The notes beneath the pieces were generated by a model. It was not told the DNA's origin. It ran no database searches and saw nothing but the letters and a program-made list of their open reading frames with translations. The position numbers and the translations under genes are program-made. Source: a virus. From it: 56,485 nucleotides of DNA. This document shows positions 2,251 to 21,953 of the stretch, piece after piece. The stretch is taken from IMG/VR virus record IMGVR_UViG_3300011443_000003, positions 1-56,485 of that record. One strand, 5' to 3'. Numbering within the stretch: the stretch's first letter is position 1; each line of letters starts with the position of its first letter.

Positions 2251-2891
2251 TCAGGCAGCTTCTCTTTCGTTTCCTTGCTCATCTTGCGAAGCGCGTATTC
2301 AAGCGGTGCCCAAACCTTCAACTGCAACGGACACGCGCACGCTTCGCAGACTCCCAAGTTGGCGTCATACTTGGTTTGCAACTGCATCGAGTTCTTGGCG
2401 GCCAACTGGTTCTTGATCAGTTCCGCTGCTGGCTCCGTAAACAAGGTTTTCCAATCGCCCGTTCCGTTCATGGGGCAACGGGTGTTACCTGGAGCACCTG
2501 CCGTGCAGATTAGTGCGCGAGCGTCGGCTACTTCTCGGGGGACTACTTTTCCATTCTCCGACCAAGCCAATAGATTCTGTGCTCCAACTCCTAATCGGTT
2601 AATGCCCGCAACAACGGCCCCTGCGCGGCGCATTACTCCCCGCAGAGGCGAAATTTTTGGGCTTTCTACCATTCCCAATCTTCGCATGGTGAACTTTTCG
2701 AGTTCTACAGCAACCTCGTCGAAGGAGGTTGAGAGCTTGTGTTGTTTGGTGATCGCCGGGTTTTTCAACCTGTGACGAATTATTTCCTCCACCGTCCTGT
2801 CGAACGTGAAGCCAAGCGGCATAGGATTTCTCCAACCTGTTTGCGGTTGGAAAAAAGTCCAGCCGTTAGGGGGGAAGGTATGTCTATCCAT
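2217..2891 (-). CDS. Hypothetical protein (Cys-containing C-terminus)
   Basis: 224-aa ORF directly downstream of terL and overlapping both neighbours by a few codons. No family recognised. Confidence 0.55.
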   Translation of the reverse strand: MDRHTFPPNGWTFFQPQTGWRNPMPLGFTFDRTVEEIIRHRLKNPAITKQHKLSTSFDEVAVELEKFTMRRLGMVESPKISPLRGVMRRAGAVVAGINRLGVGAQNLLAWSENGKVVPREVADARALICTAGAPGNTRCPMNGTGDWKTLFTEPAAELIKNQLAAKNSMQLQTKYDANLGVCEACACPLQLKVWAPLEYALRKMSKETKEKLPEWCWMKTGGGK

Positions 2892-5574
2892 AGGTTAGTG
2901 TATATTTACTGCGCTTATCTCGTTCTTCTTTAATTGCTTTGTCAAGCCATCCCTGATCTTGGACGGCGGAATTGTCGTCTACTTTCATGCGTTCTATGAT
3001 GAAGCCTAAACGCTGCGCCCCTTCTAGTGCAACCGCCGCCGCGTCGGCCTTGTTCGGGGACTGACCCATCCTCTCCTTGCATTCAGCCTTTGTTTCAAGC
3101 TCGTAACGATTTCCGTTGGTGAATCGCCATTCACGCATTGACAGTTCGGACACGACATCTTCAGGCATCTCTCGCACTTGATATGATTCTACTGCTTGGC
3201 GAATGCTGAACCACGCTTGCGTCACATATTTTGAATAATGCTCCGATGCTTTCTTTAATCGTCGCGTCTGAGTCTTTTCGTCAAATGTGAAAGTGTCGTT
3301 GCTTACAGGTCGATCCGTTGCAGAGCCACCAAAGTTCACGGCGTTGACTTCGTTACCGACTATCCTAGCCATGCTGATTGCCAGCGATGCACGCATACCA
3401 GCTTCAAAGAAAACATTCGTTGGCGGCACATTCAGTTGCGGGAGCAATCCTTTCACGAAAATAGCAATCTGATCCTCGACACTATCCTTGGAACTCATCA
3501 GGAGAGGAATAGTGACGGTCTGGTTAAACTTGATTACTGTCTGTCCCGTAACTTCCTCTCCGTATTCCAACAGGATCGCTTCGCACGGGTCGCCGCCGTA
3601 ACCCGCGTCGATTCCAAGCACGCGAGTAGTTTCCTTTCCGCTCCAGATACAGGTCTTGTAAGCCTCATACCGTAAGCACATGGCGCGAGTCAGGACACGG
3701 TATGTATCCACTCCCAACTTTCGCACACCCATAATCTGTGACCAAAACTCGCCTGAGTCTTTACCGCTTCGTTTCAACACGCGGTCAACGTCTGCTTGAT
3801 CAATTAGGTATGGATAATCCTTTGGGCGATCAACGTCGAAGTTTGGTGAGTCTATGCCTACGAGATTGACCGTTATTCCATCTAGTCGATTCTTCCAAGT
3901 GCAGGTCTTGGTAATTTCTCCAAGGGAATCCCAACCCGCCACAGGTTCGGCCATCTTGTCGAGAGCCTTGCCGTTGCCTCCGATTGGATTGCCAACAAAA
4001 CAGCCGGTGAATGTGCCCTTGTCAAGGTTGGATAGGGTGTTGATATAGTTGATGTGCATAAACTGGCAATTATGCACACAAAAACCATTCACGCTGTAGC
4101 TTGGGTGATTGTTAATTTGGAGATTGTAAACTCGATGCCCGCCAGTACTACCACTGCCGTCGACGCATTCATTATCTCCCGGTTCTTGAACCGTAACACT
4201 GTCCACCCACGCTCCTGTAAGAAATTGGTTTTCCTTTCGTCCGATGCTCTCCTTGTTGGGCTGTTGTGCGTCATCCCGTCGACTTCGATTGCCAGCTTCA
4301 GATGTGGAATTGCAGCATCTATCTTGTAATGTGTCGGAATTCCATTCCCCGGTTTTATTTTCGTCTTTACGCAGAAATTGTAAACCGCGCTCGGCACCAT
4401 GCAGAGCAAGCGTTTTTCTGGTTCTGTCGGGCCATGCCCATTCCCGCCGCGAACTGGTGGACCCCAACCCATCTCTATTAGCTTCTTCCGAGTTTTTGCG
4501 GCTGCGGCCATTTTCACATCCATCGGCCTGTTCCTTGTCAATTCCGCAAGTTTCTTTGCCCATTGAGGATTTTCCGCGTGTTTCTGTAACAAAATCTTCC
4601 TGTATTTCTCCGCATGCTCCGGTCCAGTCTTGTACTTCGTGAAGCAGGCATTGCTGCAAAATCTTGTGTGCCTCGGATCCAGTTTTATTCCGCAGGAGTA
4701 ACAATGTGTTCTTGGTTCCATAAACGTAGTGGTTTTTTGTTAGGTTTTCTGCCATCACCCATCCCTGTTGGGTGAATAGCTCATGGTTTTTCGTGCAGGT
4801 TACTTTTCTTCCATCACTAAACGAAATCGTTAAAAGCTTCTGTGCTAGGCTAGATTTTGCAGCGATAACAGTTCCAACTCCGATTGCGTTGTAAACTAAA
4901 TCTCCAACTTGGATCGATTCTATCGGATACGATCCGCTTGGGGTATCAACCGTCGTTCCGGCAGGAAAACACTCATCGCCAAGCAATCTCCTTCGCTTTT
5001 GCTTAATACCAACAAATTTTTCTAGACCTCCAGACCACTGCCCATCGCTCCCGATGCATGGAATGCAGAGAATCCCACGGCGCATGTCGCGCACATCTGC
5101 ATCCTCTCCCAATGTGTCAGTGAATACACCGTGTTTGGCATCGACTACATTTCCCGGCAGGTAATTCCACCGTTCTCTCGCTCTATCGAAAAGATCCTTG
5201 ACATCCCCCCATACCCGCAACTCCAAACCGCGTATATCCGTAGACGACATAAGCGTAAGGGTTTCGTTCGGAAAGCAAAAATAATCCGCTAATGCGAATT
5301 TTGACATTGTGCGAGTCTTTCCGCTATCGCGTGAGCCTTGGACAACAGTGATTCTGTTTTCCAAAATGGTTTTTAGTATCAGATCACTCCATCGATTATG
5401 GTCGTCATCTGGCCATAGGCATGTTTGGAGTTTTCTAAAATGTTCAAACAACCCAAGTCCATACTCCTTCCCATCCCCCATCTTCCACTTGCCGCCCTTG
5501 CGCACGCAGCTCATTTCGATCTGTAGATCGTCCATGTCCTCCCAGACTAAATTGTAGCGGCGGGTAACAGTCAT
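2884..5574 (-). CDS. terL: Terminase large subunit precursor containing an intein
   Basis: 896-aa ORF. Walker A is VVQGSRDSGKTRT and Walker B is RRLLGDE. The RNaseH-like nuclease motif VLGIDAGYGGDP lies in the C-extein. A 301-aa insert is bounded by CFPAGTT... and ...FCVHN/C. Confidence 0.85.
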   Translation of the reverse strand: MTVTRRYNLVWEDMDDLQIEMSCVRKGGKWKMGDGKEYGLGLFEHFRKLQTCLWPDDDHNRWSDLILKTILENRITVVQGSRDSGKTRTMSKFALADYFCFPNETLTLMSSTDIRGLELRVWGDVKDLFDRARERWNYLPGNVVDAKHGVFTDTLGEDADVRDMRRGILCIPCIGSDGQWSGGLEKFVGIKQKRRRLLGDECFPAGTTVDTPSGSYPIESIQVGDLVYNAIGVGTVIAAKSSLAQKLLTISFSDGRKVTCTKNHELFTQQGWVMAENLTKNHYVYGTKNTLLLLRNKTGSEAHKILQQCLLHEVQDWTGACGEIQEDFVTETRGKSSMGKETCGIDKEQADGCENGRSRKNSEEANRDGLGSTSSRREWAWPDRTRKTLALHGAERGLQFLRKDENKTGEWNSDTLQDRCCNSTSEAGNRSRRDDAQQPNKESIGRKENQFLTGAWVDSVTVQEPGDNECVDGSGSTGGHRVYNLQINNHPSYSVNGFCVHNCQFMHINYINTLSNLDKGTFTGCFVGNPIGGNGKALDKMAEPVAGWDSLGEITKTCTWKNRLDGITVNLVGIDSPNFDVDRPKDYPYLIDQADVDRVLKRSGKDSGEFWSQIMGVRKLGVDTYRVLTRAMCLRYEAYKTCIWSGKETTRVLGIDAGYGGDPCEAILLEYGEEVTGQTVIKFNQTVTIPLLMSSKDSVEDQIAIFVKGLLPQLNVPPTNVFFEAGMRASLAISMARIVGNEVNAVNFGGSATDRPVSNDTFTFDEKTQTRRLKKASEHYSKYVTQAWFSIRQAVESYQVREMPEDVVSELSMREWRFTNGNRYELETKAECKERMGQSPNKADAAAVALEGAQRLGFIIERMKVDDNSAVQDQGWLDKAIKEERDKRSKYTLTYG
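4069..4971 (-). mobile_element. Intein (301 codons) inserted immediately after the terminase Walker B DE
   Basis: Cys1 codon is at 4971-4969 (GDE|CFPAGTTVD). Block B is VTCTKNHELFT. Blocks F/G are HRVYNLQINNHPSYSVNGFCVHN, followed by the +1 Cys codon at 4068-4066. I verified the coordinates on the nucleotide sequence. Confidence 0.8.
4089..4721 (-). CDS. Vsr/DUF559-like PD-(D/E)XK endonuclease ORF nested inside the intein in a different reading frame
   Basis: 210-aa ORF on the same strand as terL but in another frame (start 4721 mod 3 = 2; terL 5574 mod 3 = 0). The N-terminus is Cys-rich (CYSCG...FCSNAC). The C-terminal block is YKIDAAIPHLKLAIEVDGMTHNSPTRRASDERKTNFLQERGWTVLRFKNREI. Confidence 0.6.
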   Translation of the reverse strand: MEPRTHCYSCGIKLDPRHTRFCSNACFTKYKTGPEHAEKYRKILLQKHAENPQWAKKLAELTRNRPMDVKMAAAAKTRKKLIEMGWGPPVRGGNGHGPTEPEKRLLCMVPSAVYNFCVKTKIKPGNGIPTHYKIDAAIPHLKLAIEVDGMTHNSPTRRASDERKTNFLQERGWTVLRFKNREIMNASTAVVVLAGIEFTISKLTITQATA

Positions 5575-5777
5575 AGCCCATCTTCACACTGACAATAATC
5601 AGTTCGTTCGTCACAAAACCAGCATCGAATGGGTTCATCGCCCGTCATGGTTTTAACATACTCGAAAGTTTTCTCACCCAAATAGAACGCCTTGTTCGTA
5701 TCGGACTCCTTCTGCCACTCACGCACCGGCGCAAGCAGTCGGTCGCTGAAGTATTGTTCTAGGGATGGAGTGGTCAT
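5571..5777 (-). CDS. Hypothetical small protein with C-terminal Cys cluster
   Basis: The ATG at 5777 forms an ATGA overlap with the upstream stop, and the gene overlaps the terL start. The C-terminus is CWFCDERTDYCQCE. A 68-aa form is preferred over the 86-aa track ORF. Confidence 0.5.
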   Translation of the reverse strand: MTTPSLEQYFSDRLLAPVREWQKESDTNKAFYLGEKTFEYVKTMTGDEPIRCWFCDERTDYCQCEDGL

Positions 5778-6007
5778 CTGCACTCTTTCTTGGCGTGCTC
5801 CACAACGTACTGATTCTGCTCTAGCATCCATTGGCTGACTTGGCCGTGTTGCGCGAAAAGATTTCCCCCGCCGCGAGTATAGCTTGCGGTGTCGGATTCA
5901 CCATCTAGCGTTGGAAAGCTTACAAAGATTCTCACGCTATCTACATGCTCTGCCAGCTTCTCGGTGAAGTCGTCAACCATCGCCACGATTCGCTCTTTGT
6001 CGGTCAT
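5774..6007 (-). CDS. Hypothetical protein
   Basis: The first ATG is at 6007 (MTDKERIVAMVDDF...). The track ORF extends to 6088 through a non-ATG start. Confidence 0.45.
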   Translation of the reverse strand: MTDKERIVAMVDDFTEKLAEHVDSVRIFVSFPTLDGESDTASYTRGGGNLFAQHGQVSQWMLEQNQYVVEHAKKECR

Positions 6008-6117
6008 AACAGAAACCCAGTGGTGTTCAATGAATGCGAATACAACTAAGCATGTCGGCGGCTCTCCCGCTAAAGGTGGCGTCCCCACCCGCTCTATTCC
6101 ACCGGGAAATTGGTTTG

Positions 6118-6549
6118 TTAATCTTCAAGTTTGATTATTGGGATTATACCCTTCTTCTTGCCATCGCGTCCCAACCAGAAAAGGTTAGTTAATGACCACT
6201 GAATTGGCTTGTTGGTTGGCGTGACTATAATCGGATTGGTAGTCCAGAAAACATTGGTGCTGAACCAATTTGTAACGTATTCAATCAGCACCGCCTTTCT
6301 CTCCGCGAGTATCGACCCCGGCACTGACTTCAGAACGAAGCGATTGGTGGTTTCAAACCGCCTATTCATTATTCGGTTGTTTACAACTTCGGCTGGAATC
6401 TCATCCAAAAGCACGTCAACCACCGTATTCGTGACTATCTGCCCCTCCTGCACAGAGAAGAAGCGATTGGACCTGTCCTTAAACTCCCCGATTTCCGTCC
6501 AGTTGGTGACGACGATGGTTAGAATGATTGCGAGTGTGGTTGTATTCAT
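6118..6549 (-). CDS. Membrane-anchored hypothetical protein
   Basis: The ATG at 6549 forms an ATGA overlap with the upstream stop. The N-terminus has a hydrophobic helix, TTLAIILTIVVTNW. Confidence 0.55.
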   Translation of the reverse strand: MNTTTLAIILTIVVTNWTEIGEFKDRSNRFFSVQEGQIVTNTVVDVLLDEIPAEVVNNRIMNRRFETTNRFVLKSVPGSILAERKAVLIEYVTNWFSTNVFWTTNPIIVTPTNKPIQWSLTNLFWLGRDGKKKGIIPIIKLED

Positions 6550-6713
6550 CGGCACTCCTTCACTTTTATCAGTTCACCCTTCACCTCGTATTTCTCCTCA
6601 ACATGCTTCAGGAACGCCAAAGCACGATCCTTCGCGCCAGCACGCCACCATGTTCTATTATGATAATAGGCGAGCGGAAACTTGGTGAGGTAGAATGTGC
6701 GCGGGCGTTTCAT
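6546..6713 (-). CDS. Hypothetical small protein
   Basis: ATG at 6713 (MKRPRTFYLTKF...). The longer track form to 6812 has an odd N-terminal composition. Confidence 0.4.
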   Translation of the reverse strand: MKRPRTFYLTKFPLAYYHNRTWWRAGAKDRALAFLKHVEEKYEVKGELIKVKECR

Positions 6714-6888
6714 TCCTCCACCCCCCTGCAAATAACCGCGCGACTCCCTATGCAGATCAGTCCGGTTTTTGGATCGTTGTGGGAAATTACAAATCTCTCC
6801 CATTGTGTCCATCTATAATAGGAGTACACAAGCCTAAGACACGCCGGGCAAACTGTTCGTTTTCCGGTTTGCATCCAATGTTTTTGTT

Positions 6889-7254
6889 TCATTCCTCACT
6901 CCAAATTCCCATCACGCGCAGGAAAGTTTCGCAGTGCTGTTCGGCACTAGCGTTGGCCTTGCTCCATGCCCACGCCGTATACTTAGCTTGTCGGCCACAA
7001 ATTGCACTCAACGTAAGCGCGTATTCCATTCGCTTCCCCTCCGGCACGCACTTGCGCATCTCAGCGCAGGCGTTTAGGTCGTTGATGTAGTCGGGTGATG
7101 TTCTCCAGGTGCACATTCCGCCGCAGGCTTGATGTGTTTCGTGAAACGTGACCATCTCAGGACTAACTTGCTGTTCACATATAGGGCAAAACCAGTGCGG
7201 ATCACCCGTGCCACACACCTCCACAATCGCCACGTTGATCTCTTGCGGGGTCAC
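6889..7254 (-). CDS. Hypothetical protein, phage ABA-sandwich-domain-like
   Basis: 121-aa ORF with a GTG start in a GTGA overlap with the upstream stop. The motif SPDYINDLNACAEM resembles the second such protein at 18371-18754. Confidence 0.45.
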   Translation of the reverse strand: MTPQEINVAIVEVCGTGDPHWFCPICEQQVSPEMVTFHETHQACGGMCTWRTSPDYINDLNACAEMRKCVPEGKRMEYALTLSAICGRQAKYTAWAWSKANASAEQHCETFLRVMGIWSEE

Positions 7255-8159
7255 TTCGCGTCCTCCGTTTCGGCCAGGGCTTGCTCAGCTTGTGGTAGAA
7301 ACACATCCTGCACATGATCCAGAATCACCCATCCGTCATCGTAACTAATCGCTCGTGGACGAATCGGAACCAGCGCACGCAGATTTTTTATCAACTCCCT
7401 CAACCTCCCCGCCTTCTCTGGACTGAGCCAGCTGGCGCCGCATTGGGTGGAGAGGGCGTGTGTAACACTGCATCTGTCCACATTGTTTAATTGATAATGC
7501 GAAGCTCCATTGTATTCGGACCATTCGTGCCAAACAGCATGTTCAAGAATAGAACGCATCTCCGCCCCCGCAGCCTCCGCACGCTCCAGCTTGTTGTGGA
7601 GTATTAGAAATGCGTGCTTAATCGAGTTAATTACTTCAGCCCTGCCTTCACTTGCAACTTCGTTACCTTCAGCTAGGCTTATTTCGGATCCCCAGTTGAT
7701 CTCTTGAATTGCGCTTAGCCAATCTTCGTCAACTTGGTTTTCAACCTCATCTAGCTTGGCTGCGAGTTCGTCGCGGTCCATCTTATAAGCCCCAAGCAAT
7801 GCAAGTGCGTCGTCGCGCTCTTTTAGAATGGCTTGTAAGTCGATCCCGTGAATCAAAACAGGACAAGCGAAACTGAGGCTTTCAAGGTGGTTTTCATCCT
7901 GATCCTTTACCCACGCCCAGTAGTTTCCTTTTGCCTTCTCGCGGTGCGACACCAGCTCTCGCCACATGGGATCAAGCTTGGCGGCGAGGTCGTTTTCTCT
8001 AATCGACGCCTTACTAAGCAATTGGGTAACTTCAATGTTGCTTAAAAATGCGTCTTCGTATTTGACTTTTAGTTCGTCGCGCTCCTTTGTGAGTTGGTCG
8101 ATGTGGATATTCAGATTACCGATGTCGTTATCCATCGAACGAAGTTCTTGTTCACTCAT
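7251..8159 (-). CDS. Coiled-coil hypothetical protein
   Basis: 302-aa ORF with an ATG at 8159 and long heptad-like acidic and Leu-rich stretches. Confidence 0.6.
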   Translation of the reverse strand: MSEQELRSMDNDIGNLNIHIDQLTKERDELKVKYEDAFLSNIEVTQLLSKASIRENDLAAKLDPMWRELVSHREKAKGNYWAWVKDQDENHLESLSFACPVLIHGIDLQAILKERDDALALLGAYKMDRDELAAKLDEVENQVDEDWLSAIQEINWGSEISLAEGNEVASEGRAEVINSIKHAFLILHNKLERAEAAGAEMRSILEHAVWHEWSEYNGASHYQLNNVDRCSVTHALSTQCGASWLSPEKAGRLRELIKNLRALVPIRPRAISYDDGWVILDHVQDVFLPQAEQALAETEDAK

Positions 8160-21571: not shown

Positions 21572-21953
21572 TTTGGTGGTTTTTGGTTTAACTGAAAGTC
21601 AATGCGGGTTGTCGAGTCCCGCGCTCGGCCACTTGGCTATTATTCTATCAACTGTATCATTCTCAAGTTGTTGGCCTACTGAACCGGACCAATGCGGAAA
21701 TTCACATATCTCCCCACAGCAGCCAGTAGATATACATACCCACTGCACCAAGGATTAAGCCGATGATTAGGCCGGTGAAGAATCCGGTCATTTGTTCCTT
21801 TCCGCGATCATCGCGTCGGCAGAGGCATAAGCTTCCCGCGCCAAAACAGCATCCACGTTTTTATCTGTCACTTGATCCATAGCCGGAGATGTTTTCACTT
21901 GCCCTCCTGTCCTGCGATATGTTTCATGATCGCAAACTCGGTGAAGAAGTTGA

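Follow-up and report, generated by a model that had tools for sequence, protein, structure and literature searches.

The partnership between inteins and homing endonucleases has long been put down to a free-standing endonuclease gene having invaded a mini-intein; few intermediates of this process have been observed, and they have been called rare. The locus described here lies in a 56,485-nt stretch of viral DNA (IMG/VR record IMGVR_UViG_3300011443_000003, positions 1 to 56,485; hereafter the window), in which the gene for the large terminase (TerL, gene terL) is very probably interrupted, after the 'DE' of its Walker B motif, by a contiguous class-1 intein onto which a separate homing endonuclease gene is overprinted.

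Free-standing Vsr-like endonuclease genes are known from fractured genes (Dassa et al., 2009; PMC2677866), in which they separate the two halves of a split intein. In these loci a stop codon and a spacer of 27–51 nt break the host frame and the 3' end of the endonuclease gene overlaps the C-intein by 6–69 bp; hairpins have been reported there, and the evolutionary model put forward has no overprinted state. The window shares with the fractured genes (gp41-1 and others) a Vsr-like, EDxHD endonuclease on the same strand with its 3' end overlapping the C-intein, a host among phage DNA-metabolism and packaging genes, the terminase included, and a splicing domain most similar to that of gp41-1. It differs in that the host frame continues unbroken from 5574 to 2884, with no stop, no 27–51-nt spacer and no separate start for a C-terminal half, and in the longer overlap with the C-intein (124 nt). 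Because the host frame runs through the whole endonuclease gene and the intein is contiguous, splicing in cis is expected.

Closer in layout are the non-canonical inteins. A survey of actinophages (bioRxiv 10.1101/2025.01.02.630785) described contiguous inteins with anti-sense LAGLIDADG, anti-sense VSR-like or out-of-frame ('frame 3') EndoVII-like endonucleases, called them rare, and gave VSR-like endonucleases as otherwise known only from split inteins, and in a cyanobacterial dnaX intein (bioRxiv 10.64898/2026.09.14.751524) a LAGLIDADG endonuclease occupies a +2 open reading frame (ORF), with a frame-dependent ratio of non-synonymous to synonymous substitutions (dN/dS). The idea of inteins with the endonuclease in another frame or on the other strand is credited to Gorbalenya (1998), as cited in both preprints. 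The arrangement is thus not without precedent. Like these inteins, the window has a contiguous intein ORF with an unstructured in-frame middle, a real endonuclease found only in another reading that is under purifying selection, frame-dependent dN/dS, and a proposed origin from a mini-intein invaded by a free-standing endonuclease gene. Unlike in these rare cases, its endonuclease is a same-strand, +1-frame EDxHD enzyme, its gene forms a conserved dual-coding overlap with intein blocks F/G, and the layout is the rule in ~67 loci.

The prototype EDxHD homing endonuclease is I-Bth0305I (PMC3239194; PDB 3r3p), encoded in a group I intron of recA in phage 0305phi8-36. The window enzyme resembles it in its C-terminal Vsr-like domain with E-D-x-H-D and in its predicted order of an N-terminal DNA-binding region followed by the nuclease; in place of the NUMOD/HTH repeats and the intron of I-Bth0305I, it has a CxxC...CxxxC zinc ribbon and a helical RGGNG region, and is lodged in an intein. 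A DNA methylase insertion in ShiLan (PMC11855218) also conceals an out-of-frame endonuclease in a stop-free host frame; that enzyme is an HNH and not a Vsr-like one and, as the abstract states, the insertion was not recognizable as an intein. We did not find a same-strand, out-of-frame Vsr-like endonuclease within a contiguous intein in the searched literature, from whose coverage most subscription journals are absent. The principle is already known; new here are the same-strand orientation, the +1 register, the EDxHD type and the dual-coded C-terminus, to which the homologues add that this layout is, as far as their sequences tell, the normal one in a large family of endonucleases that occupy several ATPase host genes.

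Table 1. Features of the interrupted terL locus. Window numbering is used throughout; the TerL precursor, the intein and the nested ORF all lie on the minus strand.
Feature	Position	Strand	Basis
TerL (large terminase) precursor ORF with intein	2884..5574	-	896 aa, ORF list; 0 internal stops
N-extein, residues 1-201, ending in Walker B motif LLGDE	4972..5574	-	Translation
C-extein (from +1 Cys, CQFMHINY...) and stop codon	2884..4068	-	Translation
Intein, 301 aa, C202...VHN502	4069..4971	-	Hint and Intein_splicing Pfam matches; gp41-1 likeness
Intein N-terminal splicing domain, residues 202-285, block A CFPAGTTVD and block B TKNHELF	4720..4971	-	Motifs, AlphaFold
Intein linker, residues 286-454, terminase-frame read-through of the endonuclease gene	4213..4719	-	Stop-free, hydrophilic, predicted disordered
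Intein C-terminal splicing domain, residues 455-502, AWVDSVTVQ ... HRVYNLQINNHPSYSVNGFCVHN	4069..4212	-	Conservation, AlphaFold strands
Nested (predicted) homing endonuclease gene, 210 aa and stop, +1 frame relative to terL	4089..4721	-	ORF list, Pfam, dN/dS, AlphaFold
Endonuclease zinc ribbon CxxC...CxxxC (C7, C10, C22, C26)	4644..4703	-	Alignment of 21 homologues
Endonuclease catalytic core, DUF559 / EDxHD: E146, D148, H152, D161, K164; GWTVLRFKN	4149..4334	-	Pfam match, residues 130-191
Dual-coding zone: endonuclease C-terminus over intein blocks F/G	4089..4212	-	Both products modelled as structured
Endonuclease start region: ATG 4721-4719, AAACCAC 4735-4729 upstream	4719..4735	-	Sequence

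The insert lies directly behind the Walker B segment ...KQKRRRLLGDE, the next extein residue being C503 (CQFMH...), and the ATG of the nested ORF is offset by 853 nt from the terL start, which places it in the +1 frame (Table 1). The positions, shared strand and differing frames originally given for the intein and its 210-codon ORF proved right, both being on the minus strand. Spliced in silico, TerL has 595 aa and matches PHROG 2 ('terminase large subunit', E = 9e-7); hundreds of TerL homologues were found, intein-free alleles of ~595 aa among them.

The nested ORF matches Pfam DUF559 (PF04480) with 45.7 bits (cut-off 20.6; E = 6e-12), a significant hidden Markov model match that bears out its first assignment to the Vsr/DUF559-type nucleases, and has 37 database homologues of ~200–250 aa. 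In an alignment of 21 of these, E146, D148, H152, D161, K164, the RGGNG motif and C7, C10, C22 and C26 are invariant or nearly so, the catalytic columns E146, D148, H152 and D161 being invariant and forming the EDxHD composite motif, and the conserved cysteines corresponding to the Cys-rich N-terminus remarked on at the outset. The family profile retrieves PDB 3hrl (E = 1.5e-11) and I-Bth0305I (3r3p, E = 0.006), the AlphaFold model of the 210-aa protein has a mean predicted local distance difference test score (pLDDT) of 89.7 over the full protein, and Foldseek ranks the I-Bth0305I catalytic domain (3r3p) first. The N-terminus gave weak matches to the DUF2116 treble clef and the L24e zinc ribbon; no NUMOD was found there by profile, alignment or model, its place being taken by a Cys4 zinc ribbon followed by helices. 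Judged from its sequence, the nested ORF is a DUF559/EDxHD (Vsr-like) endonuclease with an N-terminal zinc ribbon.

Over the same bases the terminase frame contains no stop codon. When the synonymous codons of the nested ORF were permuted in 2000 shuffles, a mean of 7.5 terminase-frame stops appeared and no shuffle was stop-free (0/2000), in line with the rough estimate of 1e-4 on which the sequence-only reading had called the open frame more than chance. A host-frame stop requires T as the last base of an endonuclease codon and AA, AG or GA as the first two bases of the next one. At such stop-risk positions the NNY codons of the window end in C 16 times and in T never (other NNY codons: T 34, C 28), and the nested loci, when pooled, have 1132 C and 0 T at stop-risk wobble positions, with 2816 T and 2069 C elsewhere. 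These counts argue that selection, not chance, keeps the terminase frame open. NNT and NNC are always synonymous, and the host frame can therefore be opened at no cost to the endonuclease; any host-frame stop (T^AA, T^AG or T^GA, with ^ marking here a codon boundary and below a splice junction) disappears with a silent T-to-C change at the wobble position of an endonuclease codon, which makes the +1 register stable. The pooled counts make this a clean natural case of selection at synonymous sites alone holding a second frame open.

Divergence points to the endonuclease frame as the one under protein-level constraint. Against the closest diverged relative, ENA contig k141_68471 (L001; sample ERZ27228493; 78% nucleotide identity; window 4000–4590), Nei-Gojobori dN/dS within the ORF body amounts to 0.07 when the endonuclease frame is read and to 2.4 when the terminase frame is read, values that come from overlapping frames, are not independent and are read qualitatively only. 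Third positions of endonuclease codons have 67 substitutions, first positions 23 and second positions 16, and in the C-extein the pattern is reversed, with a terminase-frame dN/dS of 0.08. The nested ORF could instead be an unexpressed, decaying relic within an element that is now a large mini-intein passed on by vertical inheritance, in keeping with the mini-intein alleles that exist in the family and with gene finders never having called the exact ORF product. We consider this very unlikely, given a dN/dS of 0.07 in its frame, catalytic and zinc-binding residues that are all intact, a confidently predicted fold, and the sporadic distribution of empty, full and mini alleles among close TerL relatives; these features describe an intact nuclease gene under purifying selection.

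Nor does the displaced frame appear to be an artefact. The endonuclease lies between block B and block F, the usual place of intein endonuclease domains, and two compensating sequencing or assembly indels could have moved the in-frame endonuclease of a conventional intein out of register. An independent JGI metagenome contig (L112) matches window positions 2936–7282 without a gap and with a single mismatch in 4347 nt (99.98%), giving no sign of the compensating indels that the sequence-only reading had wished to see excluded, and TerL cluster mates from other samples still have precursors of 896–897 aa; the one linker polymorphism, R433W, is a silent GAC/GAT difference at endonuclease codon D148 (codon mapping by inspection). 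Moreover, the +1 register is identical in 67 diverged loci, the endonuclease frame is closed by a stop 7 codons upstream of the ATG and ends at its own stop within block G, and the complete avoidance of wobble T before AA, AG or GA would be pointless if the host frame were unread. The indel explanation is effectively refuted.

The genomic contexts of endonuclease homologues, together with a scan of IMG/VR with the endonuclease alignment, yielded 69 distinct loci. In 67 of these the register is the same +1 and the host frame, offset by one base in the upstream direction from that of the endonuclease, is free of stops (~9.5 expected); it remains open for hundreds of codons on either side, and the third frame has 4–34 stops. 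Every nested locus reads, in the host frame, an N-terminus of the form C-F-P-A-G-T-x-V-D... with T-x-x-H, starting 0–5 residues after Walker B 'DE', and a C-terminus of the form R-V-D/E-S-V-E-V ... V-Y-N-L-E-V-E ... V-H-N followed by C or S. In-silico splicing of the hosts restores contiguous Pfam domains, namely Terminase_6N, ResIII/DEAD/Helicase_C, SNF2-related and the AAA+ domain of DNA polymerase III clamp loaders. Intein-nested copies in metagenome-assembled genomes again have no host-frame stops, and 14 cellular DUF559 genes from bacterial genomes, taken as a control, have 1–6 stops in the corresponding frame over only 120–200 codons. Recurring in ~67 diverged loci whose host genes belong to several families, the overprinted layout amounts to a stable and conserved architecture. 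The first description of the locus as a snapshot of how inteins and endonuclease genes associate is supported in its overprinted mechanism and not in its transience.

The two exceptions (L003:2914-3570 and L019:2995-3648) are free-standing endonuclease genes with 4 and 7 stops, respectively, in the corresponding frame. Both adjoin a downstream gene (terL in L003), 'NWVDCVEV' is still readable in their -1 frame, and T at stop-risk wobble positions is still under-used (12/46), a pattern that suggests recent escape from the nested state.

Empty, full and mini alleles stand side by side in the TerL family, sporadically among close relatives. In the intein-free allele P0039 the exteins are 77% identical to those of the window and the junction reads ...LLGDELQFMH..., with L in place of C at +1; modelled on this allele, the intein-less terL site would be ...CTGCTGGGTGATGAA^CTGCAGTTTATGCAC-like. 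Two cluster mates of the window TerL (P0159 and P0038) differ strongly in intein residues ~208–247 (window ~4831–4953) and are identical over the remainder, the 40-residue diverged tract in the N-domain of the P0159 intein looking like recombination or gene conversion within the intein. The coexisting alleles and the mosaic P0159 intein would fit ongoing homing and recombination.

The splicing motifs are confined to the two ends of the intein, as first noted, on the evidence of Hint and intein matches, host-frame motifs and likeness to gp41-1. Block A supplies the nucleophile C202 in ...LLGDE^CFPAGTTVD, its C-F-P-A-G-T start being common to the related loci; block B has T261-K-N-H264 (TKNHELF), retained in these loci as T(P/x)xH; and block G reads ...GFCVHN502^C503QF, with VHN^C/S in all of them. 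With the linker removed, the best PDB match is the gp41-1 intein (6qaz, E = 6e-8; phmmer). In the AlphaFold model of the precursor, folded structure is seen in the exteins and in the two splicing halves, with β strands in the N-terminal splicing domain (pLDDT ~70–84) and strands at 455–463 and 480–500 in the C-terminal one, which all related loci conserve in their host frame and the mini-inteins have too. Since the catalytic residues are intact and the insertion site falls inside Walker B of an essential ATPase, we infer that this contiguous class-1 intein splices.

The 169-residue linker between these halves gave no Pfam match at E ≤ 0.01, which agrees with the initial observation that it contains no nuclease motif; it is unconserved and predicted to be disordered, rich in G/E/R/T/S/K (hydrophobic residues 22% vs 40% in the N-terminal splicing domain), and residues 315–446 have a pLDDT of ~25 and no secondary structure in the precursor model. 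Helices of moderate confidence at 287–315 were rejected as real elements, the apparent conservation there being a reflection of the zinc finger that the endonuclease frame encodes. Three mini-intein alleles (P0059, P0096 and P0155) at the same site cleanly lack the linker, their N-domain being joined straight to '...GAWVES...'; since they lack it, the linker must be dispensable for the function of the intein.

At the other end of the nested gene, two structured products appear to share the same bases. The last ~40 endonuclease codons, comprising the GWTVLRFKN strand and the C-terminal helix (residues 186–207; pLDDT > 90; aligned with a helix of 3hrl), overlap AWVDSVTVQ and blocks F/G of the intein, a layout conserved in all loci. 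A run of ~45 nt in this zone is invariant relative to L001, and the family-wide endonuclease tail '...TISKL...' corresponds to 'VY(N/D)L(E/Q)' read in the +1 frame. Since the free-standing L003 also reads NWVDCVEV, the host-frame 'AWVDSV' might have been a mere by-product of the endonuclease GWTVLRF; this was rejected, 'AWVDSV' being also a real intein element because it is kept in the mini-inteins and forms a confidently predicted β strand. On the models of both products, this is a true dual-coding segment, in which a short stretch would encode two folded protein elements at once.

We propose that terL is translated straight through the insert, giving the N-terminal splicing domain, ~170 hydrophilic, unstructured residues and the C-terminal splicing domain. 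The two splicing halves would associate across the disordered loop and splice in cis, releasing an active terminase of ~595 aa with ...GDE-CQF... restored in its ATPase centre. Independent internal initiation at the ATG at 4721, in the +1 frame, would give a free 23-kDa EDxHD endonuclease with a zinc-ribbon N-terminal domain, which by analogy with I-Bth0305I may be expected to dimerize via its nuclease domain. By the same kind of analogy it would cut intein-less terL near the Walker B codons in co-infecting phages, and repair from the occupied allele would then copy the intein and the endonuclease together.

Several observations weigh against this account, besides the interdependence of the dN/dS values. 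The intein scores in Pfam and NCBIfam fall just below the curated cut-offs despite significant E-values: the best Pfam match (PF14890) reaches 33.5 bits (E = 4.6e-8; cut-off 35.8), and several further Hint families match, each under its own cut-off. The window endonuclease start has no Shine-Dalgarno (SD) motif, only an A/C-rich AAACCAC leader 7 nt before the ATG; a promoter and terminator scan around the insert gave nothing above shuffled expectation, and RNA folding around the endonuclease start revealed no significant hairpin (z = -1.1). Both the 23-kDa endonuclease and spliced TerL are products predicted here from sequence. Finally, L001 contradicts the expectation that relatives keep the terL frame open, which held in 67 of 69 loci: two host-frame stops lie in the first 39 nt of this 662-nt contig, within the N-terminal coding part of the endonuclease, and L001 may be a split ('fractured') or decaying variant. 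No stop violation follows over its next ~150 codons. No longer L001-like contig was found, a metagenome scan returning the window's own twin and one distant match and an exact-pattern scan of viral contigs nothing.

These stops are among the points that favour reading the locus as a fractured gene, in which the TerL halves are made apart and trans-spliced and the open frame is incidental; so are the nearest solved splicing domain, the gp41-1 split intein from fractured genes, and the endonuclease family with its 3' overlap with the C-intein (PMC2677866). The window has, however, neither a stop after the N-intein nor a non-coding spacer, and no host-frame start codon for a C-intein fragment; 0 host-frame stops in 67 of 69 loci against ~9.5 expected indicates selection for read-through. 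A split gene is, in our judgement, highly improbable.

The missing SD motif bears likewise on programmed +1 frameshifting from terL, which would yield a fusion of N-extein, N-intein and endonuclease, and an A-rich run (ACA AAA AAC) lies just upstream of the ORF. Its heptamer is nevertheless phased for -1 rather than +1 frameshifting, the -1 frame stops after ~18 codons, and relatives do not share the run; a stop closes the endonuclease frame upstream, as noted above, the ATG is conserved at its position across loci and several loci have a clear SD motif. Frameshifting thus has very little probability. An internal start, as proposed above, is in keeping with the ATG, made of the host Tyr codon TAT plus G, lying 2–10 codons before the first CxxC in most of 54 distinct loci.

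Other starts in the window are of this kind; an SD-like motif, even one of only 4 nt, is present in just 13 of its 50 long ORFs. Of the heptamer AAACCA[AC] there are 40 copies on the gene strand and 12 on the opposite one, ~16 copies lying 0–12 nt upstream of an ORF-opening ATG (for example, on the minus strand, at 21582, 20172, 18388, 14678, 9413, 36066 and 4735). It looks like a non-SD translation start signal of the window phage or its host.

Taken over all loci, a further-reaching view, which we hold as probable rather than assured, is that the window intein belongs to a large and previously undescribed class in phages in which an EDxHD gene is always overprinted in +1, its last helix sharing bases with the F/G strands, in which the Walker B motif of many P-loop ATPases is targeted, and in which the register is fixed by silent T-to-C changes; the class would stand to the gp41-1-type split inteins as a sister or ancestor that splices in cis. 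If this is true, such inteins are common, not 'extremely rare', and are overlooked systematically in gene calling and in intein surveys. Gene-calling output contains the 896-aa precursor or else the endonuclease, not both; because only one product is reported, such endonucleases would be undercounted and such inteins mislabelled as decaying. The family would provide an intermediate that is conserved and has many members, together with matched alleles of the empty, full and mini kinds and gp41-1 as a split relative, and because all of these are available, the steps from invasion to fusion or fracture are testable in one family. A loop of ~170 residues tolerated in a gp41-1-like intein is also relevant to intein engineering.

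The phage itself, whose 56,485-bp window is an entire contig, appears to belong to an uncultivated lineage known only from metagenomes. GenBank phages gave no DNA match to the window terL region (blastn, distant setting), spliced TerL had no Pfam match at E ≤ 1e-5, and a tRNA scan of the whole window found no tRNA genes.

Further inteins were seen in the same host families. The TerL homologues P0044, P0051, P0060, P0061, P0085, P0091, P0113 and P0114 have inteins at at least four sites of the terminase family (Walker B DE^C; ...GxxC^IPC...; ...F^C...HN^CGIKQKRRR; and Walker A RDC^V...HN^SSKT), and some TerL-family proteins, of 1233–1263 aa, have two. Several of the inteins at other sites have long low-complexity middles that may conceal more out-of-frame genes. 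Among the helicase hosts (L028, L035 / L045), some have a second, conventional-looking intein upstream of the Walker B one, with a LAGLIDADG-like body and an end reading ...VTHN^T; because these hosts have both, one gene can carry a canonical and an overprinted intein.

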